Positions 11,643-30,379 of a stretch of 64,000 bases of DNA are shown one piece after another. This DNA is from a virus. The DNA lies in IMG/VR virus record IMGVR_UViG_3300027797_000012, positions 1 to 64,000 of that record; one strand, given 5' to 3'. Each line of letters starts with the position of its first letter. Positions within the stretch are counted from its first letter, which is position 1. A program made the position numbers and the translations under genes. The notes beneath the pieces are model-generated. The model was not told the origin of the DNA and searched no databases. It was given only the letters and a program-made list of their open reading frames with translations.

Positions 11643-13037
11643 CTACCTGACCTTAAATGTCCCACCACCACGAAACGCAGGCAATTTACGTTGCCCTGGC
11701 GACTTAGCCGTAATCCTTCCACCCATGAACCCTGCTGGTGGCTTAATGAGCAGGGCTGTGAGGGCATGAACTAGTGCGTCCACCCTATCCGGCGACTTTC
11801 CTTCTCCTGGGATCCAGGAGGCCATCTGAGACTCTAGATCACCCATGTATCCGACGTGGTGCACACGATTTTGCTCATAGGCAAGGGTGATAGGCTCAGC
11901 CCGCAGGGCTTTGCCATACTTAGAGTGAACCTCAAGGACCTTTACCGTTGGGTCAATGGTGTTAATGGCGTTTCTTACCAAGGCGCCACCTTGATTGACC
12001 TCAGCGACCACTGGGCATCCCCATTTACGTGCCATAGCGACAACCTTTTGAGCCCAGACGGTGGGTGAGCCTAGAATGGAAGCATCTTCAAGTATCCAGC
12101 TCTGACGTTTGTAAAGATCTCTATCTCCCGTAGAGGCGCAGACGATAATCCCGCATTCATCTCGTGGGTTTTCAGCTACCGATGGGTCAACCCCAATTAC
12201 GCGAAGAGGGACGCCTTGAGGCATAACCATTTCACGGCCTTTGTCGATAAGCTCCATTGTCCATAGAGCTCCTTCAACATCTGAAAGCATCTCGCCGTAA
12301 AGCTCTTGCGCAGCTAGACGAGTTCCTTGGTAAACTCCAAGAATAGCATCAAGGTAAGCTTGAGAAAGGTTTCCGGAGTTATCTAGCGTAGAGCCACGGG
12401 TGATAGCTACGCGCCCAGTAGTCTCGGCTTCTTTAATAAGTGAGTACAAAAGTGGCACGCGCTTCGGTGTGGTAGTAATCATCATCTTAGGATTTTGCCC
12501 AAGACGTACACCCACGCGTAAGTTGTCAAAGGCTGTCATGCCAGCTGCGTCAGGAGTTTGTCGCCAAGCGGCAACCTCATCTCCCCAAGCGTGTGTGAAC
12601 TGAGGTCCACGGAGAGAGTCAGGCTCATCAGCTGTGAAGCATGTGGCGGTATTTCCGTTAGGCCAAGTCAGTCTTCGCTTTGACGGCTCATACAAAGGGC
12701 GTTCACTTGGAGCTGAAACATTTATGATTCCCGATTCACCTTCAACGATAACGTCACGCACGTCGGCAGCTGTACGAGCGACTAGAGCAAAACGGCGTTG
12801 GCCAGTGTCGGTATGCTTAGCTTCTTCTCTTACCCACTCGGCTGCAGCTCTAGTCTTACCAGCACCGCGACCTGCGAGGTACATCCATATAGACCAATCG
12901 CCTTGTGGAGGTTGCTGCTCTGGTCGAGACCAGACAGTCCAATCCCACATGAGATTGTCCATGTCAAAATCCGCAAGGATTTCGTTACGCTCTTCCTCTG
13001 GCAGCATAGCTAGATGCTCCATTATACTTTTACCCAT
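11643..13037 (-). CDS. terL: Terminase large subunit
   Basis: Walker A AGRGAGKT, LRGPQF..AWGDE, TTTP, nuclease GVDPS and SPDRVDA. Confidence 0.93.
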   Translation of the reverse strand: MGKSIMEHLAMLPEEERNEILADFDMDNLMWDWTVWSRPEQQPPQGDWSIWMYLAGRGAGKTRAAAEWVREEAKHTDTGQRRFALVARTAADVRDVIVEGESGIINVSAPSERPLYEPSKRRLTWPNGNTATCFTADEPDSLRGPQFTHAWGDEVAAWRQTPDAAGMTAFDNLRVGVRLGQNPKMMITTTPKRVPLLYSLIKEAETTGRVAITRGSTLDNSGNLSQAYLDAILGVYQGTRLAAQELYGEMLSDVEGALWTMELIDKGREMVMPQGVPLRVIGVDPSVAENPRDECGIIVCASTGDRDLYKRQSWILEDASILGSPTVWAQKVVAMARKWGCPVVAEVNQGGALVRNAINTIDPTVKVLEVHSKYGKALRAEPITLAYEQNRVHHVGYMGDLESQMASWIPGEGKSPDRVDALVHALTALLIKPPAGFMGGRITAKSPGQRKLPAFRGGGTFKVR

Positions 13038-13054
13038 GTGTACTATAGTACATT

Positions 13055-13190
13055 AAAAAAGAAAAAGCTAGACGGTTTTAGCCGCCTAGCTTCTTCTCTA
13101 CCTGAGAAAGGATGTCATCACCTGATGGTGGATTGGAGTACGCCACCAGGGAGACCCTCGATGTGGAGTAATGACTTAAACCAATCGAGT
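13055..13190 (-). ncRNA. Candidate about 130-nt sRNA with anti-SD-like elements
   Basis: Extended -10 at 13197-13205, two hairpins, no ORF, intrinsic terminator at 13055-13092. Confidence 0.55.
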
Positions 13191-13202
13191 AAGGTAATTA
13201 TA

Positions 13203-14123
13203 TCAGGAAACGTCTCGATAAATCTGCGAAACAACTTTCGCCCAAATTACCGGAGTGTGCTCAAGTGGTTGATAACCACCAGCTCCTCCAATAAGAACTC
13301 TGCCTTGCGAATGCTTATTAGCTATACGAGCTACAGCCTTAGCCGCGTACTCGTATCCTGGATAATCAAACTGCAATGAAGACAGAGGATCTGTCTTGTG
13401 CGCATCGGCTCCAGTAGCTAGAAGAATAACATCTGGCTTGATCTCATCCGCTAATGCTTCTATCTCATCCATTGCCTTCTTGAAAGCTTCATCACCGCTG
13501 TTCGCCGGTAGCGCCCAGTTGTAAACTCCTTCGTCTGGTGAATGCCCGCTTCGCCCAGTACCTGGAAAGATAGTTCCATCATGGATACTCGCAGTAACAA
13601 TATCGTAGTGATCTCGTAAAAGATTCTCTACGCCATCGCCATGGTGCGCATCCCAGTCAATGTACATAACCTTTAGGCCTTTGAGATCAAACTGACGAGC
13701 AGCCCAAGCCATATCGTTGAATACACAGAACCCAGATGAGTGGTCGTACTGCGCATGGTGCTTAGCTCCCTGAGGATTAAACGCAACCTTTGCTTCACCT
13801 GCTAAGATCTTTTCAACAAGACGAACTGTGCCCGCAAACATCTCTAAGGCAACCTGACCCTTTTCAAGACTGTTTGGACGCCATTCTCCGCAGTGCCCAT
13901 CATCCAACACCTTAGAAACATAGTGTGAATCGTGTACGAACTGTACTCGATCTCGATCTATGTCTGTGGCATTAGGCGTGACAAGCTCAATATCAAATTC
14001 TTCTGCAAGAAGATTTGTAGCAAGCTTAGCTCGCATAGGATTAGTCGGATGGTTATCGCCTTCAGATCCAAGCTTCCACTTTAAGTAAACATCATCGTAA
14101 GCTACATGTAGTTTACTCGGCAT
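13203..14123 (-). CDS. Zn-dependent histone-deacetylase (HDAC/AcuC) family protein
   Basis: HPTNPMR, GAKHHA..SSGFCVFND, IDWDAHHGDG, IFPGTG, GADAHKTDPL, GGAGGY. Confidence 0.92.
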   Translation of the reverse strand: MPSKLHVAYDDVYLKWKLGSEGDNHPTNPMRAKLATNLLAEEFDIELVTPNATDIDRDRVQFVHDSHYVSKVLDDGHCGEWRPNSLEKGQVALEMFAGTVRLVEKILAGEAKVAFNPQGAKHHAQYDHSSGFCVFNDMAWAARQFDLKGLKVMYIDWDAHHGDGVENLLRDHYDIVTASIHDGTIFPGTGRSGHSPDEGVYNWALPANSGDEAFKKAMDEIEALADEIKPDVILLATGADAHKTDPLSSLQFDYPGYEYAAKAVARIANKHSQGRVLIGGAGGYQPLEHTPVIWAKVVSQIYRDVS

Positions 14124-14667
14124 CTGGTGCTCCTAGCTGGAGTAGGTGCCTTTCAAAGTCCGCATTGCAAAGAACATACGCTGTTCGCTTGCTGCGCATC
14201 AAAGAAATTGCATCTGCAGCTTCATAGCCTTCCCGCATAAGAACGAGAGCTGTAGTCAGACCAGAACGGTTTAACCCAGCTTGGCAACGAATTAAAGTTT
14301 TGTTACCAGATTTCCAAGCGGTATGCGCATATTCAACTACACGCGAAAGCTTTTCCCAGTCGATGTGCTCGATGTTTGAATCATAAAAACCAAAACGCAA
14401 TTCATCAACTAACCAGTCGGCTGGCTTTGCCCATGCATAGAGTGTAATTACCGTATCGAAATCGTCCTTCGTGATTTCACGGCTCAAGCGTGTGTCGGCA
14501 GATGTTTCGATTGTGTCGTTATCATCAGTGCCACCGACCCAGAGACCAGGCAGGATCTCACTCCATAGAGGGAAGTCCCAGCTATCTAGCTCGTGTTTCG
14601 GGGCATACCCTTCTTCGATAATGCTTGCCATGTGTTCGTCTCCTTTGTCATTTGTGTCATTTGTCAT
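14113..14667 (-). CDS. Dual-specificity/tyrosine protein phosphatase
   Basis: CX5R loop RCQAGLNRSG; EILPGLWVGG; alternative start at 14631. Confidence 0.88.
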   Translation of the reverse strand: MTNDTNDKGDEHMASIIEEGYAPKHELDSWDFPLWSEILPGLWVGGTDDNDTIETSADTRLSREITKDDFDTVITLYAWAKPADWLVDELRFGFYDSNIEHIDWEKLSRVVEYAHTAWKSGNKTLIRCQAGLNRSGLTTALVLMREGYEAADAISLMRSKRTAYVLCNADFERHLLQLGAPDAE

Positions 14668-14709
14668 TATATGTACTATTATATCAGGTTATGTTACTCG
14701 CGAGTACCA

Positions 14710-15276
14710 CTACTCTTCTTGCACGAAGGTGTGGATCTCTCCACCGGAGTAGATGTCATGCTGTATAGCTATTTCAATAGCTCGACGCAAAATCTTCTCC
14801 GCAGCTTCGGGAGTCTTAACTTTTCGATAGCTTAGAGCTTCTAAAGCTCCAAGCGCGATGTCTCCGCCGCTACCGGAGTAATAAACGTTCCTAGCTTCTC
14901 TATCCCAAGAGTAGTCATTAAAAATTGGATAGATAACTCCCTGGACCGAAACAATTAAGTTCGAGTCATGCTCCGCAGCTGCTCCGTCGTCCTTACCTTC
15001 GTAGCCAGCATCTTGAAATGCTTTTCTAAGCGAAGGTATGAACTTCTTAGTCATAAAGATGTCTAAGTTTTCAGTTCGAGTAGGCTTAGGCGCCTTCCAA
15101 CCAAATTGGGCAATGTTGCCACCGCGTGATGCACCGGAGACAGCAATTAGCGCTCCATTGTTTTGCACGATTTTATGCGTAGCAAGATCCATGTATCGAC
15201 CACCTTCATCAGATGCTCGTGAATCGCAACCGAGAACAGACCAGCCATCACCTTGTATTGCCGCAAGTGTAGTCAC
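14710..15276 (-). CDS. Ntn-hydrolase, proteasome beta/HslV-like protease
   Basis: GTG start gives N-terminal Thr (TTLAAI); DSRAS, K, GSGGDIALGAL, DIYSGG. Confidence 0.85.
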   Translation of the reverse strand: MTTLAAIQGDGWSVLGCDSRASDEGGRYMDLATHKIVQNNGALIAVSGASRGGNIAQFGWKAPKPTRTENLDIFMTKKFIPSLRKAFQDAGYEGKDDGAAAEHDSNLIVSVQGVIYPIFNDYSWDREARNVYYSGSGGDIALGALEALSYRKVKTPEAAEKILRRAIEIAIQHDIYSGGEIHTFVQEE

Positions 15277-15345
15277 TGGTTCCCTCTCCAAAAGACCTGG
15301 CTAAACGCCTGGGTTAAATATAACCCAAGCGTTTAACCTTTGTCT

Positions 15346-15678
15346 TTAGACTAGGTCGATTATCGCAACAGGTACTGTGACCAGTGCGGATTCTACGTCA
15401 CGGGTGATTGGATTAACCCGTGCGAATCTACCTGTAGGTGTTACAAGTTTAACCACAACCTTCTTCTGTTTCTTGCTTACCACGGTAGCTTTTTGACCTA
15501 CCATGTAACGAGTCCCAGTAAGACTGTTGAATACTACCGTATCACCTATGTGGTAGTCATTGATGGTGCGTTCACTGCGAGATGCAGTAAGACGATCCTC
15601 AATGGCTTCCTTTAGCTTTGTTAAGGAAGAATCATACACACCCGCGTTAACGCTGGCGATGATTACATCTATGTCCAT
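15346..15678 (-). CDS. Hypothetical protein (SH3/KOW-like)
   Basis: Promoter plus SD; IGDTVVF. Confidence 0.6.
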   Translation of the reverse strand: MDIDVIIASVNAGVYDSSLTKLKEAIEDRLTASRSERTINDYHIGDTVVFNSLTGTRYMVGQKATVVSKKQKKVVVKLVTPTGRFARVNPITRDVESALVTVPVAIIDLV

Positions 15679-15856
15679 TTTTGTTCCTTTCCGTCAGTGT
15701 AGTACTATTATATCAGGTATACTGATAAAAGTAAACTAGCCCTACTCTTCGGGTTTGCAAAAGACACAGTGGCACATGTCATCGATGATAGATTTCACGA
15801 CAAGCCAGCCGAGAAACAGTATCAACCCGCAAACAATCCACATAATGCCTTCGGGA

Positions 15857-16057
15857 CTAAGCATCAACCTGGCTAGGGCAATGCCCGAATAATTGGGCAG
15901 TCAGTTGCATACTGGTTTTTCCGGTACGGGTCCAGTCTTGATAAACTCGCTTCCACTCTTTGGAAGCACCCTTAGGGTGATAGACCAAGCATTGACAAGG
16001 AGACGTGGACAGTTCATCCACGGCTCTTGTCTGCTCGGCTATCTGAGAATTAAGCAT
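15857..16057 (-). CDS. Hypothetical protein
   Basis: Operon context. Confidence 0.5.
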   Translation of the reverse strand: MLNSQIAEQTRAVDELSTSPCQCLVYHPKGASKEWKRVYQDWTRTGKTSMQLTAQLFGHCPSQVDA

Positions 16058-16292
16058 CGACCTCGGCACGGAAGTACCCGATACCTTCAGCTGCTTGAAC
16101 TTCATCTTCTACCCAAGGTAGACGCTTTCGATCTGTGTCAAGGAATGAGCTAGCGTAGAGGACTGCCTCACGCTTTGCAGGTCCAAGAGATTTGAATGCA
16201 CCGTAACGTGCTTGCCCTGAGCCAAGATCCTTAACTGTAACTAACCATGCAGCGTTAGGTGCCTTGCTCTTATGTAATGTTGCTACTATCAT
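16050..16292 (-). CDS. Hypothetical protein
   Basis: ATGA coupling. Confidence 0.6.
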   Translation of the reverse strand: MIVATLHKSKAPNAAWLVTVKDLGSGQARYGAFKSLGPAKREAVLYASSFLDTDRKRLPWVEDEVQAAEGIGYFRAEVDA

Positions 16293-16474
16293 TTAGTGCC
16301 TTTCGTCTTTGTCTTTGGTGGCTCAAGAAGTTTCTTGAGCTTCGCGTTCTTTTCTTCAAGCTCTTTGATGTAGATCCGTAAAGCTCGATTGTCACGTATT
16401 GAAAGAATCATCACAAGGCCTGCGCCTAATAGTGCGATGATGATTGCAAGTATATCCGTAGACTCTAGTATCAT
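16289..16474 (-). CDS. Membrane-anchored coiled-coil peptide
   Basis: N-terminal TM. Confidence 0.6.
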   Translation of the reverse strand: MILESTDILAIIIALLGAGLVMILSIRDNRALRIYIKELEEKNAKLKKLLEPPKTKTKGTK

Positions 16475-16770
16475 TAGTTTTCCTCCCAGTTAATAGACCA
16501 GCCATCGCAGTAAGCATCCTCTGTTTTAGGGTGCCACCTTGTTACTGTTTTTTCAGGTATACACATGAATTTAGTAAACTCATGTGCACATTTATGACAG
16601 AGCATAAATTGCAGAGGGTTCTCCGCACCTATAGCGTAGATGTTATCTACGAACATCATATACCCACCATCAAGTGACAGCTCAAGAGCCACAGGTATAT
16701 TCGAGTCCATTGACATGGGTTTGAATACCTGTGGGTCTTGGCAGCGAGAACACTCGACTATAGTTATCAT
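16474..16770 (-). CDS. Hypothetical zinc-binding protein
   Basis: CSRC...CHKC; TAATG coupling. Confidence 0.6.
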   Translation of the reverse strand: MITIVECSRCQDPQVFKPMSMDSNIPVALELSLDGGYMMFVDNIYAIGAENPLQFMLCHKCAHEFTKFMCIPEKTVTRWHPKTEDAYCDGWSINWEEN

Positions 16771-17048
16771 TACGCGCCGGTAGATCCTGCAATACTTAGA
16801 TAGCTAATGTCACCAGGCTCGCGATACTGAATTTCCTCGCGCACAACTTCTGGGTGGTTAAGCACGAGAGCGAGTAGCTCCTCTGCGCTCATTTCTTCGT
16901 GAGGCTCTCCACGAGTTTCTTTCATAACTACTACCTTCTCGATTGGTGCGGTAGCACCTAGTAGAAGTTCTCTTACCTGTGCCTTCGTGTCAATGATGTA
17001 GTAGTAAGTAGTTCCCTTAATGGTTACTGCTGTTCCATACGCTGTCAT
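16770..17048 (-). CDS. Hypothetical protein
   Basis: GGAGAGG SD. Confidence 0.6.
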   Translation of the reverse strand: MTAYGTAVTIKGTTYYYIIDTKAQVRELLLGATAPIEKVVVMKETRGEPHEEMSAEELLALVLNHPEVVREEIQYREPGDISYLSIAGSTGA

Positions 17049-17060
17049 GTTGTCCTCTCC

Positions 17061-17303
17061 TTAGACCGCAAACGCGAGTCTATATCCTTTTGCAATTTTA
17101 GAGTTAACCTTTGCAACCGCAGCAACTCGAGCGCTTTGGTCTGTAATGAAACGTTGTGATTGGTTCTGGCGTTGAGATTTCTCAGCCATTCCCCATGTGG
17201 TGCGAACTGTAGATCCGTCGAGGATTACCTCGTAAATCTTCTTCTTACCGATAGCACCGCGAGCGCCATCGCTGTCTTTTAAGAGACACCATCTTTGAGT
17301 CAT
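17061..17303 (-). CDS. WGR-domain protein
   Basis: KKIYEV...VRTTWG...K..SKIAKGY. Confidence 0.7.
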   Translation of the reverse strand: MTQRWCLLKDSDGARGAIGKKKIYEVILDGSTVRTTWGMAEKSQRQNQSQRFITDQSARVAAVAKVNSKIAKGYRLAFAV

Positions 17304-17350
17304 TTTATATCCTTCCGTCGTTTGGTAATACTATTATATCAGGTTTAGTT

Positions 17351-17524
17351 TTACTTGTACAACACCTTGCATAAGGCTTCGTACTTTTCATCTAACCACT
17401 TAATTTGGTTTTCTGTGAGGGTTTGAACCTCAACCTCGCCGCGTTCTTCACGACGACGTCCGCGCTTAGCCAGCTTGACACCGGCGTATAGAACCACGCT
17501 GTCCTTGACTAATCCGTTAAACAT
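17351..17524 (-). CDS. Hypothetical protein
   Basis: Promoter at 17565 plus SD. Confidence 0.55.
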   Translation of the reverse strand: MFNGLVKDSVVLYAGVKLAKRGRRREERGEVEVQTLTENQIKWLDEKYEALCKVLYK

Positions 17525-17595
17525 TTTCTTTCCTTTTCTACCAGCCACCTTGGCTGATAGGTTAATTATAACATGGTACTGGTAAAAAGTACACC

Positions 17596-17871
17596 TTACT
17601 CGTCGGTAACATCTTCCTCGTCCGGCCACATCTCCGGACGGAGGGCAAACTCGTATTGGTCACCCCTCCAGGAGTTTGTACCAAAGGAGATGTCTTCCTC
17701 CATGAGCTTGTTCAGGGACAGGACCGCAGTGTGCCCTTCAGCCTCGAACATGATTACCAATTTGGTATCTGATTGCTCAGGGTCATCAACGAGAGCTACA
17801 GTGAACGGCATCCCACCGATTCCATTTCTGTGAGTGTCCATGTCAACAATCTCTAGCTTATCGGCGTTCAT
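17596..17871 (-). CDS. Hypothetical phage protein
   Basis: HRNGIGG..F, NSWRGDQYE. Confidence 0.65.
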   Translation of the reverse strand: MNADKLEIVDMDTHRNGIGGMPFTVALVDDPEQSDTKLVIMFEAEGHTAVLSLNKLMEEDISFGTNSWRGDQYEFALRPEMWPDEEDVTDE

Positions 17872-18032
17872 TCTTCTCTCTTCCGTTCTGGTCGTCTCTT
17901 AGAAATCTCATGGGTTGCTAAATCCATCTTATGTTTGTGCAGCCAATCCTTTGCTACAGTTTCATTTATGAACTCACCCAGCCATTTTCCCTCTGGATTA
18001 AATACATTTACAAGATCGTATAGGGTACTCAT
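17868..18032 (-). CDS. Hypothetical protein
   Basis: 54 aa, ATGA overlaps on both sides. Confidence 0.5.
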   Translation of the reverse strand: MSTLYDLVNVFNPEGKWLGEFINETVAKDWLHKHKMDLATHEISKRRPERKREE

Positions 18033-18607
18033 TGAGAAACTCTATTCGCTGACTTGACTGGTGTATAGCATGTGCTCTTTCCCTTATGTTGTATGTATCC
18101 GTAACGAGCTAACCGAAAGCGTAGAGCTCCATGGGTAACCCCAAGAGATTTAGCAAGACGGTACAGAGTAACTTTTTCTACCGTGTGAGCTTTCCAAATT
18201 AGCGCACTGTACTCTTCAGCTTCAGCTCGGTATTGTTTGTGGTCGTAGCGAACTTTCTGTGCAAGAGGTTGTAGCTCAAGTAAACGAGCTAGAGTCTCCT
18301 TGCTTGGCAAGATCGGTACATGCACATCCTTAACCTCAACGTCTTCAAGTGGAACAGACGGCATAGGGAATTCTCCGGGATTAGCAAGAATGCTAATAAC
18401 GAGAGAAGGTTGGGCAGATGATTCAATTTGACGAATACGTTCTCTGGTAAGACCCATTGCATTCGCAAGGCTCTGCAGTGTCCACTTGTTACAGCGGAGT
18501 GCATACACATAAGCTGCGCGAGTCTCTTTGTCTTTGATGATACCGAGTTTAACGGTAGCTTCGAACGGCAACACTAAGTGCTGTCTAACTTCTTTTTGTA
18601 CTATCAT
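18029..18607 (-). CDS. Sigma-70 region-4-like HTH protein
   Basis: WTLQSLANAMGLTRERIRQIE plus a second HTH. Confidence 0.7.
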   Translation of the reverse strand: MIVQKEVRQHLVLPFEATVKLGIIKDKETRAAYVYALRCNKWTLQSLANAMGLTRERIRQIESSAQPSLVISILANPGEFPMPSVPLEDVEVKDVHVPILPSKETLARLLELQPLAQKVRYDHKQYRAEAEEYSALIWKAHTVEKVTLYRLAKSLGVTHGALRFRLARYGYIQHKGKSTCYTPVKSANRVSQ

Positions 18608-18616
18608 TGGTTTCCT

Positions 18617-18826
18617 TTAGTTAATTGCTAGTGGGTCGCATGTAGGGAGAGTGTGAGTTCTCCAGTCGGTAATAACTGTGTCTAGTACTTCGGCAAGATC
18701 TTCCGGTAACTGCGCTGCGATAAGCTTTACAGTCGCAACGGTAACCGCATTATCTGTAAACATGTCATCATGCTCAGACTGATTGAATCCGCACATGTGA
18801 CATAGATCTCCTCCACCACTACTCAT
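18617..18826 (-). CDS. Hypothetical protein
   Basis: Operon context. Confidence 0.5.
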   Translation of the reverse strand: MSSGGGDLCHMCGFNQSEHDDMFTDNAVTVATVKLIAAQLPEDLAEVLDTVITDWRTHTLPTCDPLAIN

Positions 18827-18978
18827 GCGGCCACCTGCGCTTGACTCTTAATACGAGATTGAAGATCTGAAACCATGTGGGCAAGGTGATGGAATCCTGC
18901 ATTTTGGCAGGAAGCTTTCTCTTTGCCAAGCGCACGCAGAATTAGCTCTACGTCTTTATCGGTAAGTTCAATGTTCAC
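18823..18978 (-). CDS. Hypothetical protein
   Basis: GTG start, 51 aa, fills the gap between neighbours. Confidence 0.45.
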   Translation of the reverse strand: MNIELTDKDVELILRALGKEKASCQNAGFHHLAHMVSDLQSRIKSQAQVAA

Positions 18979-18980
18979 TA

Positions 18981-19271
18981 TTACACCAGTCTTTCTTTTG
19001 CAAGAACTGCGTTCTTTACGAGTTCAACTACATCTTTGTTAAATCCACCGATGTTGTACTCCATAACTTCATCCATGTCAGGCGCACCTAAATCGTAGCG
19101 CTTCCAATCATAAACTGTCGCAACAGACCCATCTGAAAACATGTGGGTCCATTCAACGGTAACTTTGTCACCTGGGTAGTAGAACGTTGGTTCGTCAAAT
19201 GCCTTAATGAGATCTCTCATTGTAGTTGTGACATACCCTTGTAGGGATGTTCCATTTGCGATGTTGCTCAT
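18981..19271 (-). CDS. Conserved-looking hypothetical phage protein
   Basis: GTSLQG..., DKVTVEW, ATVYDWK, NIGG; promoter plus SD. Confidence 0.7.
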   Translation of the reverse strand: MSNIANGTSLQGYVTTTMRDLIKAFDEPTFYYPGDKVTVEWTHMFSDGSVATVYDWKRYDLGAPDMDEVMEYNIGGFNKDVVELVKNAVLAKERLV

Positions 19272-19312
19272 TTCTTTGTCCTTTCGTCGTTGTTAGTACT
19301 ATTATAACATGT

Positions 19313-19537
19313 TTACTTGTCTAAGTAAACTATCTCCACAAATTCATTTGCCCAGGCGGTAAGCCCAGCTTCCATCTTGTTTTTATGATGACCGCAGAAG
19401 AATAGCTCAGCTCCGGAGTTCCCTTTTACTTTCCAGATTGCCTGAGCTGTCTGGCAGGAATCACAAGGAACCCAACCGTAAGAATCTTTAGGCGTTTCTT
19501 CAAGTACTTTTACTTCTTCAGTAATGGTAGACTCCAC
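19313..19537 (-). CDS. Small zinc-finger protein
   Basis: CDSC...LFFCGHH. Confidence 0.6.
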   Translation of the reverse strand: MESTITEEVKVLEETPKDSYGWVPCDSCQTAQAIWKVKGNSGAELFFCGHHKNKMEAGLTAWANEFVEIVYLDK

Positions 19538-19571
19538 GTTCTCTCCTTTAGTTGAGTTAATCATACTTGGT

Positions 19572-19811
19572 TTAGAAATTGTTGTTTGGGTCGTACCAGC
19601 CTTCGCGTGAGTTTTCCTCACCGCACTGGTTACAGATCCACTCAGCAGTCCAAGTTACATCGCCGTGCGAGTACTCTTCAATGGTCGGTACCTCATAAGA
19701 TGCGGTACACTCGTCATTACCGCAATCAAGCTCTTGAACGCCATCGCTCTCATCAGCACCAGCAATCTGCCATTCAGAACCGGAGACTCCCGGTGGGTAG
19801 TTGCTACTCAT
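19572..19811 (-). CDS. Acidic zinc-ribbon protein
   Basis: NYPPGV; CGNDEC...CNQCG. Confidence 0.6.
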   Translation of the reverse strand: MSSNYPPGVSGSEWQIAGADESDGVQELDCGNDECTASYEVPTIEEYSHGDVTWTAEWICNQCGEENSREGWYDPNNNF

Positions 19812-20002
19812 TAGTTGTTCCGATGGTTTAGAAAGTCTTCAATGGTGTTTTGAATCGCATCATTGATGTCGTCCGCAAGTTGGTCGATTTCTTCTTTCGT
19901 GTATTCCACGAAACCTTCTTCATCTCCATTACCCCACATCAGTCTCAACTGATCTGTGGTTAGAGATGAGTCAAAGATTACTATGTCTTCTTTCTCGTCC
20001 AT
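19811..20002 (-). CDS. Acidic hypothetical protein
   Basis: Promoter plus SD. Confidence 0.6.
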   Translation of the reverse strand: MDEKEDIVIFDSSLTTDQLRLMWGNGDEEGFVEYTKEEIDQLADDINDAIQNTIEDFLNHRNN

Positions 20003-20063
20003 AGGGTTCCTTTCGTCGTTGTGTATAAGTTAATTATAACATGTTTTAGATCTAAAGTACACT

Positions 20064-20153
20064 TTAGTCTTTATGCCAGCAGTCACAACCGCATCTCTTG
20101 GCGCAGTACTCGTGTTCGCCGCTTAGACAATTATCGCACTTAGGTTTAGACAT
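20064..20153 (-). CDS. 29-aa Cys-rich peptide
   Basis: MSKPKCDNCLSGEHEYCAKRCGCDCWHKD after ACGGAAGGA SD. Confidence 0.5.
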   Translation of the reverse strand: MSKPKCDNCLSGEHEYCAKRCGCDCWHKD

Positions 20154-20208
20154 CTTGTGTTCCTTCCGTGGAAGGTAGCTCACCGGAGTGGTGAGCTACC
20201 CGCAACTA

Positions 20209-20655
20209 TTACTTAACTGGGTACTTGTCCGCATCTTTCTGAGTGACCGGAGTCATCTGACCAAAATCTGGGTTTGTTAGGTGTGAGTTAATGTAAACTA
20301 TAATGTCTTCATAATCTACATCAAAGGAGAAGAGAGTGTGAGTATAGTACTCACTGTGAATTCTTAGCTCATAACATTTAGAACCGGTGTCTTCAACTAG
20401 AGTAGGTTCTGACTGGTCTTCATCTACTATGTAGTAGATACCTTCTGGAGTCTTTACTAAGAAGGTGCCCGCATCTTGTCCACCTAAACCTATAGATAGA
20501 AGAATGGTTCCTTCTGGGAGAGTATTGATGTATGGGGTTTCTAATTCATCATACCAAGAAACTTTATTGTTTTCATCATTTAGGTATGAATTGAAATCAA
20601 CTGCTGGAGTATTTTTGAAGTGGTTGTTGAAGTGAGTAAGTGTTGAAGTCTTCAT
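20209..20655 (-). CDS. Hypothetical protein
   Basis: Promoter plus GATTGGA SD; AT-rich. Confidence 0.6.
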   Translation of the reverse strand: MKTSTLTHFNNHFKNTPAVDFNSYLNDENNKVSWYDELETPYINTLPEGTILLSIGLGGQDAGTFLVKTPEGIYYIVDEDQSEPTLVEDTGSKCYELRIHSEYYTHTLFSFDVDYEDIIVYINSHLTNPDFGQMTPVTQKDADKYPVK

Positions 20656-20773
20656 TTAGGTTCCAATCTATTTTTTAACCCTTGTGGTTAATAAGATAAT
20701 TGTATCATACTTCTATTATAAAGTACAATTGAAGGTACCCTACCGGTGAGTAGGGTACCCGCAATAATTAGAA

Positions 20774-20917
20774 TTAGCTCCAGAAGTTTTCTGAGGCGTA
20801 GCTCTCAGCCTGGACTGCCGGCTTGCTCTCCTTGCGGGCTAGCCAGACCCACATAATGATAAGAGGTGTGTTTAGAAGTAGTGCGCCTGCGATAATCTGA
20901 ACTAGTGCTGTTGTCAT
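20774..20917 (-). CDS. Small membrane protein
   Basis: 47 aa; same promoter/leader cassette as the gene starting at 20655. Confidence 0.55.
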   Translation of the reverse strand: MTTALVQIIAGALLLNTPLIIMWVWLARKESKPAVQAESYASENFWS

Positions 20918-21001
20918 TTTGTTTTCCAATCTTTCTTTTTTATTAACCCTTGTGGTTAATAAGTTAATTATAACATGGTTCTATTACAAAGTACAATACC
21001 A

Positions 21002-21296
21002 AATGAAAGAAGCTGGCCGCGTGGATTGGAATACGCGCAGCCAGCTTCAATTCACTGGACAAGACAGTTTGCTCACAAAGGGCCTGATTCGCGCTTCACT
21101 TTTTGCGCAGTACCGCATGTCGATTCTGCTATGCGGTTTTAATCCTAACTTCCCTAAGACAATATTGCTCTGTCTCTTTCCTAAGTCAAGCTACCCATAC
21201 CCGCGGTGCCGTGTCAGCTTATCGGGAGTAGTGTCTCCATGAGATACCCTTATGCTCCAAGACTTAGTAAGTCCAAACCTACGTATTAAGTTGTTA
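21002..21296 (-). ncRNA. Candidate about 290-nt structured ncRNA
   Basis: Promoter at 21302, no credible ORF, multiple helices, terminator at 21002-21048. Confidence 0.6.
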
Positions 21297-21313
21297 GTCC
21301 TATTATAACAGGT

Positions 21314-21493
21314 TTATTCCCATTCGGTAATAAATACTGCCTCGAAATCTTCTATTGGTCGTTTTAGACCAATCCGCGCCATCTCCAGGTATCGGGTAAC
21401 GTCCGCACGTTTACGGGCACGAAACTTAGAGATGCGTTCACCCGTATGAACATCACGAATTTCCCAGATGCCAGCCGATGCATTTTTGCTCAC
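21314..21493 (-). CDS. Hypothetical protein
   Basis: GTGA coupling. Confidence 0.5.
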   Translation of the reverse strand: MSKNASAGIWEIRDVHTGERISKFRARKRADVTRYLEMARIGLKRPIEDFEAVFITEWE

Positions 21494-21861
21494 CGGAAGA
21501 ACCCAGCTTCTTCTTCGTACGAATTGCGAAGCTTTCTTGCAAGTTCCTCGAGCTGTACTAGCCAAGGGTGCGGTAGAGCTAGGTTGTCACCTTCATCGTC
21601 CGTGCCGCCGGTGAATACGACGTCGCCCATAATGATGTCGGACATGATGAAAGACTTTTCCCAAAGGTGAGTAGCAATAACGTTTGGTTGCATTCCATTG
21701 ATAAGCTTACCCTCTTCGTTACACCAAAGTGTGAGGTCGTCATACAGGTCTGCTGCTTCAACCAAGCCGCCGACAGCTTCCTGGAGTTGTGTGAGACTGT
21801 CTACCTCAAGATCTAAGATCTCTGTTGTGAAGTCCGTGTTAATTCGTAGTGCTGTTTTCAT
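21490..21861 (-). CDS. DUF3846-family protein
   Basis: LQEAVGGLVE, WCNEEGKL, N.IAT, IMGDVVFTG. Confidence 0.8.
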   Translation of the reverse strand: MKTALRINTDFTTEILDLEVDSLTQLQEAVGGLVEAADLYDDLTLWCNEEGKLINGMQPNVIATHLWEKSFIMSDIIMGDVVFTGGTDDEGDNLALPHPWLVQLEELARKLRNSYEEEAGFFR

Positions 21862-22043
21862 GATGTAGCTATCTCCGCTTCTGGAAACCACTTAAGGAAT
21901 ACTTGAATGAGATGATTGTAGTCTCCTGAAGTCATCTCTTCGGTAAATGTTGCAAGCTCGTCTTCACGACCCGCACTTATTAAAGCACGCCTACCGGCGC
22001 CAATGAATGAGAAAGCATTCCCATCGTTAACTGAAACTGTCAT
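21858..22043 (-). CDS. Hypothetical phage protein
   Basis: DGNAFSFIG...SGDYNHLI. Confidence 0.65.
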   Translation of the reverse strand: MTVSVNDGNAFSFIGAGRRALISAGREDELATFTEEMTSGDYNHLIQVFLKWFPEAEIATS

Positions 22044-22273
22044 GAACTCATCTCCTCTACGAATAAGTGGCCTGGTCCATTACCCTCAGGATCTTGTGAC
22101 GGTACGAATCCATGCCCATTGTCGAGAATGTAAACTACAGGTATCGAACCTGAACTGTCTTGTTCCCAACCGAACAAGTCTAGCTCTTCATTATTTAGCT
22201 CACGGACCTTAACGATTGTTCGCCCAATGAGGGAACCCCAGGTCTTTTGAATGTATGCATCGTACTTACTCAT
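22040..22273 (-). CDS. Hypothetical phage protein
   Basis: LIGRTIVKVR, SQDPEGNGPG. Confidence 0.65.
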   Translation of the reverse strand: MSKYDAYIQKTWGSLIGRTIVKVRELNNEELDLFGWEQDSSGSIPVVYILDNGHGFVPSQDPEGNGPGHLFVEEMSS

Positions 22274-22408
22274 TTAGATAACCTCTCTTCCGCATTCACG
22301 GTACAAGTCTTCACCGCATCCTCCGCAGTAGGCAAGCAGACATTTAGCTCCATCTGCGTGAATGCAAGGAATGAAACTTACTTCTGTACTATTACAGTAT
22401 GTGCTCAT
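22274..22408 (-). CDS. Small Cys-rich protein
   Basis: 44 aa after GAAAGGATTGGA SD. Confidence 0.5.
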   Translation of the reverse strand: MSTYCNSTEVSFIPCIHADGAKCLLAYCGGCGEDLYRECGREVI

Positions 22409-22601
22409 TGCTTTCCAATCCTTTCGTCGTTTAAGTATTCAAGGGCCGCGGTGATGCTTCGGCCTATCTTGCCAGAGGTGCCTGCAGATTATGCACGGCA
22501 CGTGGACTCGGGCGTCGCGTGTTCCGCCTAGTTTAACTGGTGACCAGCACCCTTGAATAGTTTAATTATATCAGGTTATGAGGAAGAAGTACAGGGCTGC
22601 C

Positions 22602-22898
22602 TCAGCAGAGGCAGACCCCGGACTTTGATGGTGTTGTGAAACAGTTACCGCAAGTGTTAAGGATTACCTTTGGTTTGTTAGATTGCTTGTGGTGGTTTAC
22701 CGCACCGATGTTAACAAGTTTTGTTGCCACAGAATAGTAACTGCGACCTAGCTCTTTCGCAATGTCTTTAATAGACATCTTGCCAGCTCGAAGAGATTGC
22801 ATTCTGCTAATCTCTGTATGCGTCCATTCCTCATTGAGGTTGACCGCGGTAGCTAGCGAGAAGCTTTGAGCTCCCCGCATCCAATCTTGTGAGTCCAT
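22602..22898 (-). CDS. HTH plus zinc-finger protein
   Basis: WTHTEI...SIKDIAKELGRSYYSV; CGNCF...GVCLC. Confidence 0.65.
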   Translation of the reverse strand: MDSQDWMRGAQSFSLATAVNLNEEWTHTEISRMQSLRAGKMSIKDIAKELGRSYYSVATKLVNIGAVNHHKQSNKPKVILNTCGNCFTTPSKSGVCLC

Positions 22899-22970
22899 GT
22901 ACTTTCCTTCCGTCGTTGTGATAGTACAATTGTAACATGGTTCTATTATAAAGTACAATACCCTCCGGAA

Positions 22971-23204
22971 TTATTTTTTGTTCTCGTACTCCCAGTAGCT
23001 TTTAGCCAGCTCATAGAACATTTTCGCAAGACCAGGGGTAATCTCGTATCCAATCTGCTCACACGAAGAACGGCAGTAGCCATTGTCAATGTCTTCCATT
23101 AGCTCCGGGTCCTTTAACAGCTTTTCTGAAGAGAAGATGAATCCGGTGTCTGCTAAATCAAAAAATGTATCCATGCCTTCATGGGCAACATAAATGCTAT
23201 CCAT
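22971..23204 (-). CDS. Hypothetical protein
   Basis: TAATG coupling. Confidence 0.55.
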   Translation of the reverse strand: MDSIYVAHEGMDTFFDLADTGFIFSSEKLLKDPELMEDIDNGYCRSSCEQIGYEITPGLAKMFYELAKSYWEYENKK

Positions 23205-23356
23205 TATCCAACCTGGAAATCATCGCAATAGCGACATTGGTATGAGTCACCTAGAATTGAGCGTGGGTCATAATTGTGAATGTAGTCGTGTTGCTCTTGA
23301 GTTGCACAGAATTGAAAGTCGCCTCTGCGAATGTAAGTGCGTTGTTTCGTTATCAC
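23204..23356 (-). CDS. Hypothetical protein
   Basis: GTG after ACGACGAAAGGA SD. Confidence 0.5.
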   Translation of the reverse strand: MITKQRTYIRRGDFQFCATQEQHDYIHNYDPRSILGDSYQCRYCDDFQVG

Positions 23357-23457
23357 GGTTGTCCTTTCGTCGTTGGTAGAGCTCACCGGAGGATTTTCCG
23401 TATCCTGTCCCGGAATTGGAAGACCCGTTCCGGTGAGCTTAGTACTATTATATCAGG

Positions 23458-24360
23458 TTACCAGTACTTTCGTTCGAATACCGTTACCGTACGGTAGGCG
23501 TTTTGTAGGGACGCCTTAACGTTATCCATTACCGTTCCTATGGCCAAGCCACCCGATAGCTCTCTAGCCAGTCTGGTAGCTACTGAGACCGTTGCACCTG
23601 AGGTACCCAGGCTGACCGCCTTTGTCCCCGTTACGTCGGTTACCGTCCATCGTCCCATGGCATACAGGTCTAGGTCCGGGCTGGAGTTCGATATCAGCAT
23701 GATGGGGTAGACCCAGCCTTGAATATTCTTGACCGTGTATCGGGTATCCGTTGCCCCTACCGCTATCGCCTGTGGTATACAGGCTGGGTAGTAAACTTTC
23801 TTTTGATCCGAGCCGTTACCCGTTGAAACAACAACCGGCACGTTAACCGAGGCTAGCCCAATGATTTGATCTTGTAATTTAGTTTCGATAGGGCATGCCG
23901 CTTCTCTGTACGCCCGTCCGAATGAGACTGATACCGCGCCAACATTTAGCCGTGCCGCATTGGCAGATACCCAATCGAGAGCGAGTGATAGAGCTTTAGT
24001 TGTGTATGTGGTTGCACGTCCTTTAGACATGCCGACAACACGAACAAACACAATCTTGACGTCTGGGTTTACCGTTACTGCAACCGACGCCATCTGCGTG
24101 CCGTGACTCATAGCTTTGTCTGTTACAAGCTTTGGGTCTAGCGTTGCCGCACCTGGGCCAACCATACTTGACTTGCCGTTTGGACACAAGCCGTACTCGA
24201 TGAAGCATGCTTCTTCGATGACCGCACTCTTTGCCCAGTCGAGATTTGTGTTGATACCGGAGTCGATGATGACAAGAGTTTTATCGCTTGCCGCATTCGC
24301 CGGAGTTGAGAGTAGAGCTAAGCCTAAGGCTGCACATATAAGTAGCACTTTAGTTTTCAT
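23458..24360 (-). CDS. Secreted subtilisin-like (S8) serine protease
   Basis: Signal peptide; triad motifs IIDSGI, HGTQMA, GTSGAT; TGN. Confidence 0.88.
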   Translation of the reverse strand: MKTKVLLICAALGLALLSTPANAASDKTLVIIDSGINTNLDWAKSAVIEEACFIEYGLCPNGKSSMVGPGAATLDPKLVTDKAMSHGTQMASVAVTVNPDVKIVFVRVVGMSKGRATTYTTKALSLALDWVSANAARLNVGAVSVSFGRAYREAACPIETKLQDQIIGLASVNVPVVVSTGNGSDQKKVYYPACIPQAIAVGATDTRYTVKNIQGWVYPIMLISNSSPDLDLYAMGRWTVTDVTGTKAVSLGTSGATVSVATRLARELSGGLAIGTVMDNVKASLQNAYRTVTVFERKYW

Positions 24361-24496
24361 CGGTTCCTTCTTTCATTATGTCGTTGTGTTTGGTTTTACG
24401 TGTATACTTCTTTTTATTAGTAAGTGGACGAGCTGCGTTGGATCTCCGGAGTTCAAGTAATCTCCGGAGTTCTTCTTTTGATTTTGGTAGTTTCAT
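24350..24496 (-). CDS. Small basic protein, loosely ArfA-like
   Basis: RRSNAA...NKKKYTRKTKH. Confidence 0.5.
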   Translation of the reverse strand: MKLPKSKEELRRLLELRRSNAARPLTNKKKYTRKTKHNDIMKEGTDEN

Positions 24497-24561
24497 AATA
24501 GTTGTGGGACCGGTGTGGCCGGGGACGATCTGACGGAAGGATCCGACCACACCGGAGCTTG

Positions 24562-26358
24562 TTAGGCAGCCCGCTGCCCAATCTTTGTAAGTGCCTTCGC
24601 TGCTGCAGAACCAATCTGCACCGCAGCTTCTGCTGGGTCTCGTACATCTGAAAGAATCACAGTATCCGGACCTGCAATTCCACGAGCGTATCTGCCCTCT
24701 TCGAAAGGAATCCATAGAACTGCAACTCCAGCTTTTTCGCAAGCGCGAACCCACGCTTTAGCTTTTGTTCGCTCATCATCTGTATAGCAACCATCGCTAA
24801 CAATTACGAGTAGACGAGCGCCAGTTCCATTGAGAAGATTTAGAGAACCATCAAGTGCCTTGAACGCCTTATCGAACTTTTCAGTTCCATCAGGTGCAGT
24901 GTACACAGTAACTTGGTCAAGGTGCTGTCCTGGCTTAAGCGTAGGGAACACATCCTGTCCGTAGTAAACCATTGCGCATCTACCTTGAACACGTCGAACA
25001 GCTTCTGACATCGCCCAGGCAGTTGCTGCCATAGGCTCCATGGCTGATGCCATTGAACCGGAGATGTCAACCATAACTCCAACGTTAAGCGTTGGGTCAT
25101 CTGTATGACGACGCACAGTTCTACGCCAAGGTTCTGCATGCATCATAGGATTCACAACTTTGTAAGCTGCTTCCTGAACCATTGCGCGAGTACGCAAGCG
25201 ACCGGGAGGAAGAATAGATTTGATCTCCTTCTCATCGCGCTCACGGTACTTAGCTTTTTCTAAGAGCTGAGCAATCTTAACTGCTGCCGCACGCTCAGGA
25301 CCGGTAGGATTACGAGTCTCTTTGATACGAGAGTGAGTCTTGAATGACGACATCTCTCCGGTAGCTTTTGCGAATACTTCACTAGCAGTTTTCTCGTGGT
25401 CGCGTTGCTGCTTAGCAGCTATGCTGCGCATGTCAACAACGTCTTTCCACTCTTCAGCTTGCTCTTGATCTTGAGCTTCATCGTTTACAGAGATAGCAAT
25501 CTCTTCAGATGCTTCTTCCAAAGCGTCCATGACTTCACCAAGTGGTCCATCCATGAGAATAAGAATTCCCTTTTCACCAAGGGGAGCTTCGTCGTCGCCT
25601 TTGTCTTCAGCAAGCTTAGAGATGATGTCGTCCCATTCTTTTGCAAGAACGATTAGATTTGTTGGATCGCTATGTAGCTCGTGCTTTTGAAAGCGCAACC
25701 ACACGTCGCGAAGCTGCGCGAGCACCTCTGTACCGAAGAAGTTAAGTAGAAGTTCTTTTACTTCTAGCACATCGTCTGCGTCTAGCGAACCTGCATCAAC
25801 ACGAGCAAGTACTAGTCCAGCCATTCGTCCCATAGAACGAGTAGTTGTAGTTTCAGCGAGTGATGATTTAATGTCTTCAAGAATGATATCCATTGCGCAA
25901 GCGCGAAGGAACACTCTGTTGTTTGGATAGTTTTCTACACCGAGAGCTTCGATACGAGTCTCTTCAAGAAGTGTAAGTGCGTCGAACACATTGCGACTTA
26001 CTTCTTTGTCTTCGCTAATCTTTAGAAGATCGTAGCGTGAGTACCGAGCGTGCAGTGCTTCATGGAAGATAGCTCCTGCGCCTCGTGGATAGTTAAATTG
26101 AATTGTTCTATTGCGAATATCGCCAATAGTTTCAGGAGATACTCCTGTGCCGAAAGCTACATCCACGTTGACCTCAACTTCAGCCATTGGTGGATTAAAG
26201 CATGCAGGCGCTGGTCCTCCAGCTCCGGGGCCAACGTATGCGACAATGTCGCTGCGTCCTGCCCAAGTATTCACGAGCTCACCCAGCTGGGCGCCTACGC
26301 GTAGCCACTCTGGCTGCGTACGTTCCGCTCGGGTCATTGATAACTTAATGTGTCCCAT
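24562..26358 (-). CDS. CobT-like vWA protein with N-terminal HExxH motif
   Basis: FHEALH, LEETRIE, GRL, MIDAS VDISGSM, VSDG. Confidence 0.85.
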   Translation of the reverse strand: MGHIKLSMTRAERTQPEWLRVGAQLGELVNTWAGRSDIVAYVGPGAGGPAPACFNPPMAEVEVNVDVAFGTGVSPETIGDIRNRTIQFNYPRGAGAIFHEALHARYSRYDLLKISEDKEVSRNVFDALTLLEETRIEALGVENYPNNRVFLRACAMDIILEDIKSSLAETTTTRSMGRMAGLVLARVDAGSLDADDVLEVKELLLNFFGTEVLAQLRDVWLRFQKHELHSDPTNLIVLAKEWDDIISKLAEDKGDDEAPLGEKGILILMDGPLGEVMDALEEASEEIAISVNDEAQDQEQAEEWKDVVDMRSIAAKQQRDHEKTASEVFAKATGEMSSFKTHSRIKETRNPTGPERAAAVKIAQLLEKAKYRERDEKEIKSILPPGRLRTRAMVQEAAYKVVNPMMHAEPWRRTVRRHTDDPTLNVGVMVDISGSMASAMEPMAATAWAMSEAVRRVQGRCAMVYYGQDVFPTLKPGQHLDQVTVYTAPDGTEKFDKAFKALDGSLNLLNGTGARLLVIVSDGCYTDDERTKAKAWVRACEKAGVAVLWIPFEEGRYARGIAGPDTVILSDVRDPAEAAVQIGSAAAKALTKIGQRAA

Positions 26359-26404
26359 TGTAATCCTTCCGTCATTGATAGGTTAATTATATCAGGTTTA
26401 TTGG

Positions 26405-26674
26405 TTAATCCCAACCACGGCATCCGCAGTAGAAAGTGTCCTGTGCGTCTCCACGGGGAACGAAGTCATGGACTCCGTAGTTATGCCCAGGGCGACCGGT
26501 GGTTGGATTGATTTCCATGTGTGTGACTATGCTGTACCCACAAGAGAGACAACTGCTTGTAGCTCTGTCGCTACCTTCGCCATTGAATTGAAAGAATGGC
26601 AAGCTTGTGGCTGATGCACTTTCGCTTGTGCAGGATACGCACTTAGCGGTTCTTCCTTCGAGAGTAATTTCCAT
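26405..26674 (-). CDS. Cys-rich hypothetical protein
   Basis: AKCVSC...FYCGCRGWD; promoter plus SD. Confidence 0.6.
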   Translation of the reverse strand: MEITLEGRTAKCVSCTSESASATSLPFFQFNGEGSDRATSSCLSCGYSIVTHMEINPTTGRPGHNYGVHDFVPRGDAQDTFYCGCRGWD

Positions 26675-26716
26675 TTTAGTTCCTTCCGTCTGTTAGGTAC
26701 TATTATATCAGGTAAG

Positions 26717-26791
26717 TGGGGAGAGTGGGGCTCGAACCCACGCGACGACCGGAGTATAAGTCCGGAGCTCTACCAACTGAGCTACCTCCCC
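26717..26791 (-). tRNA. tRNA-Ile (anticodon UAU)
   Basis: Full cloverleaf: GGGGAGG/TCTCCCC acceptor, CCGGA-CTTATAC-TCCGG, GTGGG-TTCGAGC-CCCAC, discriminator A; CCA not encoded. Confidence 0.85.
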
Positions 26792-26840
26792 GTGCGTGAA
26801 CCCTGGGCACCCATACCCAGGGTTCACCGCGCGAAGGGGA

Positions 26841-27836: not shown

Positions 27837-27867
27837 TTACTTTCCTTTCGTCGTTTGGGTGTGGGTA

Positions 27868-28329: not shown

Positions 28330-28380
28330 TGTTATCCTTTCGTCGTTTGGGTGAATATAGTACTATTATATCAGGTATAT

Positions 28381-28617
28381 TTAGTTGTTCAGTACATAAT
28401 TGATGATTTCAATAAGCGCTTCGTCATCGTAGCTTTCAGCGTTCTCGTACTCGTCAACAATGTCACTCCACTGCTTAGCAGTGAATTCAATCTCTTCATG
28501 CTCCATGTAAGAGTAGATGTCTTCCGCGTCAAGCTTTGTCTTGATTGTAGGGACAGCGATAATTTCATCGTCAGCCATTCCTTCAAGTCTTTTAAGAATA
28601 TCAGCTTTGGTACTCAT
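28381..28617 (-). CDS. Acidic hypothetical protein
   Basis: GACGGAAGGA SD. Confidence 0.6.
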   Translation of the reverse strand: MSTKADILKRLEGMADDEIIAVPTIKTKLDAEDIYSYMEHEEIEFTAKQWSDIVDEYENAESYDDEALIEIINYVLNN

Positions 28618-29251: not shown

Positions 29252-29287
29252 ATTGTTCCTTTCGTCGTTGTGTATAGAACTATTATA

Positions 29288-30358: not shown

Positions 30359-30379
30359 GGGGTGAACAATAAACGGATG

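Follow-up and report, generated by a model that had tools for sequence, protein, structure and literature searches.

A predicted structured RNA gene beside terL, a new small RNA family in a clade of freshwater actinophages

In the Firmicutes, small RNAs (sRNAs) with C-rich or UCCC seeds, such as Staphylococcus aureus RNAIII and RsaE, employ unpaired C/U-rich loops to pair with Shine-Dalgarno (SD) regions and block initiation. Phage T4 shuts off its early mRNAs through their ribosome-binding sites, where the nuclease RegB and the repressor RegA act on a GGAG motif. The put antitermination RNAs of phage HK022 form two adjacent stem-loops right after their promoter and ahead of a terminator. Among actinobacteria, the 6C sRNA of Mycobacterium tuberculosis is described, in the accessible part of one account, as pairing through C-rich loops in a chaperone-free manner (PMC6486639). 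The sRNAs encoded by the phages of actinobacteria are almost undescribed, and the accessible part of a Rhodococcus phage paper mentions uncharacterised noncoding RNAs in mycobacteriophages and nothing further (PMC10986025). Here we describe an element upstream of the large terminase gene (terL) in the window, that is, the whole 64,000-nucleotide stretch analysed, which forms the leading 64 kb of an IMG/VR virus record (IMGVR_UViG_3300027797_000012) that spans 130,553 bases and has a completeness rating of 100%. Comparative analysis marks this element as a genuine, clade-specific structured RNA gene and a new sRNA family of a freshwater actinophage clade; our literature searches returned no described RNA of this kind, and none like it in phages of actinobacteria.

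The element extends for about 133 nucleotides (nt) downstream of the promoter and is composed of hairpin 1, hairpin 2, a short linker, and a terminator (Table 1). Transcription would start at about position 13190; hairpin 1 begins at this predicted RNA start, and the two hairpins are separated by 1–2 nt. The predicted minimum free energy of the fold is −55.3 kcal/mol compared with −31.6 ± 3.2 kcal/mol for shuffled sequences (z = −7.5), none of 200 shuffles being as good. An earlier account of the same DNA, made from its letters only and referred to hereafter as the sequence-only reading, had proposed two hairpins followed by an intrinsic terminator, and both were recovered on the minus strand where that account had placed them. 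Its early-type promoter at 13197 is likewise reasonable: the sequence TGATATAAT, a perfect extended −10, is present, belongs to a promoter class shared with the adjacent block of small genes, and contains a TGA that serves as the stop codon of the upstream Hist_deacetyl-family gene of 306 amino acids (aa). This promoter was read by eye and was omitted by a sigma-70 scan because the scan demands both hexamers.

A terL-relative search of IMG/VR, in which the best 80 of 392 loci were examined and the 178 nt upstream of terL compared, located a homologous element in 34 of 78 assessable loci, the other 44 being without it; one locus in which the contig end cuts the element (L010) and one with no upstream DNA at all (L012) fall outside the 78. 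Including the window, there are 22 distinct element sequences with identities down to about 70%. In every one of them, the −10 TAnnnT occupies the same place and the terminator is present, and the preceding TG is found in 19. A covariance model built from these variants scores each at 90–122 bits and matches none of the 44 element-less loci, its other matches being weak, reverse-strand ones to the palindromic terminator within element-bearing loci. In the alignment, which was fitted to the structure model and whose pairing statistics are to be read with that in mind, 96.8% of cells form standard pairs compared with 83.2% in shuffles, and the terminator cells are 100% paired. Compensatory changes on both sides occur in 18 of 34 pairs, a count reached by none of 500 shuffles, and controls with slid partners give at most 8 pairs; in hairpin 1 alone, 7 of the 8 modelled pairs have changed on both sides. 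Against this background of drift, the basal stem GUCUC/GAGAC and the terminator core AGCUAG/CUAGCU are invariant. Among the unpaired elements, conservation is highest in the hairpin-2 loop, CUCCAAUCC, whose consensus is GUACUCCAAUCC; CUCCAAU is read in 17 of the 22 variants, AUCCUCAGU in three, and AUUCAACCCC in two. The linker takes the form (A/G)YCCUUU(C), in which CCUUU is kept in 20 variants.

The sequence-only reading had also held that the region contains no open reading frame (ORF). This holds in the respect that counts, since no single frame is open throughout the 15 variants examined. In this particular genome, two ORFs do overlap the region, one of 38 aa on the minus strand and one of 121 aa on the plus strand; outside the window, the frame on the opposite strand is open in just two relatives (L003 and L007). 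A coding alternative is thereby ruled out. Known families do not account for the element either: over positions 12500–13800, Rfam 15 gives nothing at gathering score (best E 0.087–3.5), the highest bit scores being those of MS2 at 19.3 (gathering score 40), PrrB_RsmZ at 18.4 (44), FsrA at 18.2 (80), and STnc400 at 16.8 (80). Two tRNAs alone reach gathering score in a scan of the whole window, and ARAGORN finds neither tRNA nor tmRNA at the sRNA locus. The element is single copy in the 130,553-base genome and is absent from the complete relative G002 and the 90%-complete relative G001. An independent IMG/VR scan, keyed to the pattern of the stem and terminator, returned 47 stretches, 33 of them on contigs already included; one of the 14 new ones, on contig L131, fits the covariance model. 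Taken together, comparative analysis makes it very likely that the element is an independent promoter-to-terminator sRNA gene conserved with covariation, and its promoter and terminator signals point to production as a discrete RNA.

Table 1. Features of the sRNA locus, the terL start, and the second noncoding region, in window coordinates
Feature	Position	Strand	Basis or remark
Extended −10 promoter TGATATAAT	13205–13197	−	Sequence, conservation in the alignment, recurrence of the promoter class
Hairpin 1, roughly 9-pair stem containing a single bulged base	13189–13157	−	Folds; pairing kept while stem sequence drifts
Hairpin 2: basal stem GUCUC/GAGAC (GAUGAC in this genome), covarying inner stem, apical loop	13155–13114	−	Folds, alignment
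Apical loop of hairpin 2, GUACUCCAAUCCA	13141–13129	−	Unpaired probability about 0.9
Tract likened to 16S rRNA, GAUGACAUCCUUUCU (DNA GATGACATCCTTTCT)	13119–13105	−	First six bases paired in hairpin 2, remainder is linker
Single-stranded linker AUCCUUUCUCAGGU	13113–13100	−	Alignment; complementary to GAAAGGA-type SD sites
Intrinsic terminator, 18-pair stem (13099–13058) then U run	13099–13055	−	AGCUAG/CUAGCU core invariant, flanks covary
Perfect 14-bp palindrome TGTACTATAGTACA, then C, then terL ATG (13037)	13052–13035	−	−10-like TACTAT within
RNA-2, second noncoding region, about 300 nt	20995–21310	−	Promoter, terminator hairpin, no conserved ORF
RNA-2 promoter TGTTATAAT	21310–21302	−	Extended −10 class
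RNA-2 terminator hairpin GAAGCUGGCUGCGC-GUAUUCCAAUCCA-CGCGGCCAGCUUC with U-rich tail	21047–21010	−	Loop GUAUUCCAAUCCA (21034–21022) is the hairpin-2 loop motif

The loop of hairpin 2 recurs in RNA-2, a second noncoding region of the same genome (Table 1) in which no minus-strand ORF of at least 40 aa is found. RNA-2 folds with z = −2.65 and has no Rfam match. It is 87% identical in two relatives, where its stem has changed on both sides and its loop reads GUACUCCAAUCCA, exactly the loop of the sRNA; the motif common to both RNAs is GUAYUCCAAUCCA. An exact search with a 16-mer containing the loop returned 24 stretches, namely, five RNA-2-type hairpins, two copies of the sRNA, and 17 stretches without a hairpin. 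Its retention on two distinct covarying stems makes this loop the likeliest functional surface. The main rival to a base-pairing function draws on the same observations: the shared loop on its stable stem, together with the invariant AGCUAG core, might be recognised by an RNA-binding protein of phage or host, with the RNA acting as a decoy, sponge, guide, or scaffold. Retention of one 13-nt loop on two otherwise different covarying stems would suit a protein ligand, as would the resemblance of the lower stem of RNA-2 to the terminator stem of the sRNA (stems GAAGCUAGG and GAAGCUGG), these being the sole two hairpins of that form in the genome. Several stem positions also stay invariant amid covarying neighbours, a pattern seen more typically where proteins make contact than in an ordinary terminator. 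Yet no candidate partner protein has emerged, and the loop differs strongly in five of the 22 sequences, those with AUCCUCAGU or AUUCAACCCC. We regard protein recognition as rather unlikely.

The explanation that we tentatively prefer, to which we would give somewhat less than an even chance, is that of a phage base-pairing sRNA acting in trans on ribosome-binding regions through its C/U-rich loop and linker. An RNA of about 130 nt would be transcribed from the early-class extended −10 promoter and ended by the strong intrinsic terminator, and it would display two pyrimidine-rich single strands, the hairpin-2 loop CUCCAAUCC and the pre-terminator linker CCUUUC. These would pair with the purine-rich ribosome-binding regions of mRNAs and block the access of ribosomes, in the manner of the sRNAs of actinobacteria and Firmicutes that work without a chaperone. 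Both strands are predicted to be unpaired and complementary to candidate ribosome-binding sites. Early phage genes with (G)GAUUGGAG/A or GAAAGGA in the ribosome-binding region are the candidate targets, perhaps together with mRNAs of the host. While the element, its conservation, its fold, and its accessible motifs are observed, we infer the discrete transcript, its pairing with mRNAs, and the identity of those mRNAs.

Several features of the translation initiation regions (TIRs) are in keeping with pairing by the loop. The genome has a single copy of its 10-nt complement, UGGAUUGGAG, and that copy coincides with the SD of a GTG gene starting at 34336, where the predicted loop duplex reaches −16.4 kcal/mol compared with −9.4 kcal/mol for the 16S rRNA tail at the same site; a second loop–TIR duplex is predicted at −14.6 kcal/mol vs. 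−10.4 kcal/mol for the 16S tail, and other TIRs carry loop complements of 7–9 nt. In small early genes of the clade, a TIR consisting of (G)AUUGGAG/A, 5–6 nt, and ATG recurs: this genome has four (starts 34336, 22408, 20917, and 20655), 24 kb of the related genome G008 contain six or seven, and G005 and G006 have three or four apiece. When TIRs with at least 7 nt of loop complementarity were counted against controls in which GGAG was kept and the flanks shuffled, G005 had six (control mean 1.6; none of 200 controls reached the count), G008 five (mean 0.75; a fraction of 0.010 of 200 controls), and G006 four (mean 1.15; a fraction of 0.04), and the counts were not significant in G007 (two; mean 1.16) and G004 (one; mean 1.19). 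Loop and TIR also appear to covary in two of three RNA-2 lineages, the U of the window's loop standing opposite A in three GGAA TIRs and the loops of G004 and G008 presenting C opposite G. The candidate target proteins belong to no Pfam family. We consider loop–TIR pairing a lead rather than a result.

A number of observations weigh against this base-pairing explanation. In the window's own genome (G000), the same count gives three TIRs compared with a control mean of 2.4, which is not significant. The AUUGGAR TIRs probably derive from duplicated leader cassettes, and their counts are therefore not independent events. Covariation breaks in L156 and L160, where a CUCC loop is found beside a GGAA TIR (C opposite A), and L048, with the diverged sRNA loop AUUCAACCCC, still has a GGAUUGGAG TIR. 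The sRNA and its proposed early-gene targets share a promoter class and would therefore be made together, a poor fit to a simple early-to-late switch. Metatranscriptome run X1 is neutral as to a discrete transcript: it contains the locus as even-depth contigs, one of which spans terL, the sRNA, and the upstream gene, and such contigs show neither RNA ends nor levels and do not distinguish DNA carry-over from read-through; runs X2–X4 contain parts of terL only. Given the inconsistency in L048, L156, and L160, we rejected loop–TIR covariation as proof of pairing. Two further candidate lines were also set aside: AUUGGAR TIRs mark sRNA-carrying genomes only as a weak trend (four in G001 and two, not TIR-like, in G002, vs. 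six in G000 and seven in 24 kb of G008), and an 11-nt match of the hairpin-1 loop to the SD and AUG of a 52-aa ORF (28887) was discarded because that loop is unconserved and partly paired in this subclade.

The shared promoter class is a marked property of this region. The sequence TGNTATAAT is present in 21 genome copies compared with about four expected, all on the minus strand and 19 of them within 13–31 kb, and the promoter of the sRNA is the final member of the series before terL; the sRNA lies at the boundary between a small-gene block and the terL-structural block. Within the block itself (approximately 13000–31100, minus strand), many small genes are driven by 19 extended −10 promoters. 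These have the form (C)CTGATATAAT or CATGTTATAAT and are frequently preceded by TGTACTTT at a distance of about 14 nt. Two leader types recur there, namely, ACGACGAAAGGA-N-ATG, and a UUAACC..GGUUAA hairpin followed by AUUGGAR-N5-6-ATG.

The second pyrimidine-rich strand, the linker, bears on the original proposal of the sequence-only reading, that the RNA is a mimic of the 16S rRNA 3′ tail that titrates SD sites generally, shutting down SD-led translation while leaderless genes such as terL continue. The quoted match of 13 positions out of 15 to the actinobacterial 16S end does exist, GATGACATCCTTTCT being the sole stretch of the window that resembles the quoted 15-mer at two mismatches or fewer, and it lies within chance: 0.16 such matches are expected per window, and at least one arises in 14 of 100 window shuffles. 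Nor is the tract conserved at that level in related phages. The score of 13 is limited to four of the 22 variants (the window, L003, L007, and L009), with scores of 8–10 in the remaining 18; in the latter, the 3′ half of the hairpin-2 basal stem, which is GAUGAC in the window, reads GAGAC (16 variants) or GUAGAC (two), and the likeness is therefore confined to the window's subclade. The supposition that the tract is single-stranded applies to its linker part, with a mean unpaired probability of 0.59–0.97 for the linker and 0.75 for AUCCUUUC within the tract, and fails for its first six bases, which are paired in hairpin 2. Where the 16S tail has CCUCC, the core common to bacterial anti-SD tails in the accessible part of one report (PMC6288834), the tract reads CAUCC, so the anti-SD core is absent. 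What the phage RNA does share with 16S rRNA is a single-stranded 8-nt segment, UCCUUUCU, identical to the end of the quoted tail; the upstream likeness lies in a stem and is unconserved. The likeness to the ribosomal RNA end is thus mostly coincidence.

Other parts of that proposal fared better. The linker is indeed complementary to GAAAGGA, which is a real SD in this phage, being present in 11 of 166 crude TIRs, half of its 22 genome-wide copies. The mostly unpaired UCCUUUCU, the retention of CCUUU in nearly all variants, a CUCC in the hairpin-2 loop that could pair with GGAG, and the leaderless appearance of terL and a few other genes would all suit a decoy of the ribosomal tail. Apart from the chance-level match, however, such a decoy conflicts with the usage of SD sequences by the phage itself: 109 of the 166 crude ORFs are SD-led (predicted duplex −5.5 kcal/mol or better), among them those that immediately follow terL as well as other structural genes, and leaderless-looking genes are few. 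A global SD decoy is therefore unlikely, as it would starve the phage itself. In addition, the predicted duplex of linker and SD, at −10.2 kcal/mol, is no stronger than that of 16S rRNA and SD, at −9.5 kcal/mol, and the RNA would therefore need ribosome-like abundance. We judge imitation of the 16S tail to be very unlikely.

The start of terL nevertheless looks leaderless, as had been proposed, with TACTAT 6–7 nt before the ATG and no SD. The palindrome TGTACTATAGTACA with its TACTAT occurs once in the genome and is kept in relatives with or without the sRNA. The terL gene probably has a leaderless start with an operator-like site. Further leaderless candidates were noted in a gene at 30380–31027 (minus strand, start 31027), in which CCTGATATAAT stands 6 nt ahead of the ATG without an SD, and at genome positions 48755 and 83944, where ATG lies 6–7 nt past a TATAAT-like −10, also without an SD.

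The position of the sRNA beside this start invites explanations that act in cis. Its terminator might insulate a late, leaderless terL against early transcription, or a put-like RNA might grant read-through into terL; the location exactly between the early-promoter block and terL would fit, and so would the two closely spaced hairpins that run from the predicted RNA start to the terminator, a geometry resembling that of HK022 put. The relatives without the element argue otherwise. They keep the palindrome and ATG at terL, the deacetylase gene abutting them directly, and in L064, L073, L076–L078, and L082 the upstream gene abuts without a terminator; since element-less relatives keep the same terL start arrangement, terL expression appears to be independent of the element. 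The dependence expected of put-like antitermination is not found, as relatives without the element keep the terL start region and the complete relative G002 carries no copy. Insulation would not require conserved hairpins and a conserved loop, a read-through mRNA would offer the terL ATG without an SD, and the loop motif is present in RNA-2 as well, away from terL. We therefore think a cis-acting boundary element distinctly improbable.

Packaging signals are often located directly upstream of terL. A DNA-level signal next to the terminase gene, such as a packaging start or a protein-binding site, with no function as RNA, would likewise be consistent with an element that adjoins terL on its upstream side and has a perfect 14-bp palindrome beside it. 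Such a signal would leave unexplained the compensatory changes that preserve the hairpins despite sequence drift and the promoter and U-run terminator conserved in the right places on the right strand. The element is, moreover, absent from complete relatives that must also package DNA. This last explanation strikes us as scarcely credible.

The source is an uncultured freshwater phage of actinobacteria. The best protein match of its terL product, at 79.7% identity, is the large terminase of Actinomycetia phage DSL-LC01; identity to the terminases of Microbacterium phages is about 60%. The DSL-LC01 genome was itself assembled from the metagenome of a lake, and its actinobacterial host is a prediction, according to the accessible part of its description (PMC10611076), and the sRNA element is absent upstream of its terL. 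At the DNA level, megablast and blastn searches gave no match between GenBank phages and the window, the similarity residing in the terL protein only. Directly upstream of the sRNA (13203–15291, minus strand) lie genes for the 306-aa Hist_deacetyl-family protein, a dual-specificity phosphatase-like protein of 184 aa, and a 193-aa protein with a weak proteasome-subunit match, a trio that is unusual in a phage. In many relatives without the sRNA (L013, L026, L029, L040, and similar loci), the gene before terL ends in a conserved stretch that, read by eye from the DNA, appears to specify ...LYRLAKRLGV(T/S)HGA(I/L)RFRLARYGY; this product looks DNA-binding and may be a small terminase.

A more far-reaching version of the base-pairing explanation, which we put forward as speculation and consider unlikely, would have the sRNA and RNA-2 share a "master-key" loop, CUCCAAUCC, that pairs with the (G)GAUUGGAG/A of early genes, the CCUUUC linker facing GAAAGGA. 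The outcome would be an RNA-only retuning or shut-off of early translation that leaves terL-type leaderless genes untouched, an RNA counterpart of T4 RegA and RegB in a phylum without Hfq. Were mRNAs indeed sorted by the type of their ribosome-binding sites, this would illustrate how a phage can re-programme translation purely by RNA in hosts that commonly translate leaderless mRNAs. Were they not, the catalogues would still gain a new RNA family whose covariation is clean, whose promoter and terminator are defined, and whose two accessible motifs are complementary to ribosome-binding sites of the phage itself, and the case would caution that chance produces short resemblances to the 16S tail.

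Among described systems, HK022 put resembles the phage RNA in the placement of two adjacent hairpins between promoter and terminator and differs in that terL has its own conserved start signals, independent of the element. With T4 RegB and RegA, the phage RNA would share a regulatory logic, in which a phage product recognises a motif common to the ribosome-binding sites of early genes; the T4 factors are proteins, whereas an RNA is proposed here. RNAIII and RsaE have in common with it a C/U-rich unpaired loop as the seed for SD regions, a role that is predicted for the phage RNA, and they are host-encoded, come from another phylum, and have folds unrelated to it. In relation to 6C, the present RNA is phage-borne, finds no 6C match in Rfam up to E = 10, has the loop CUCCAAUCC in place of a C run, and possesses the additional CCUUUC linker. 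The parallels are those of an actinobacterial RNA, found in Mycobacterium and other high-GC Gram-positives, whose C-rich hairpin loops engage many mRNAs by direct pairing, independently of Hfq and ProQ, and which ends in a terminator, as set out in the accessible part of its description (PMC6486639).

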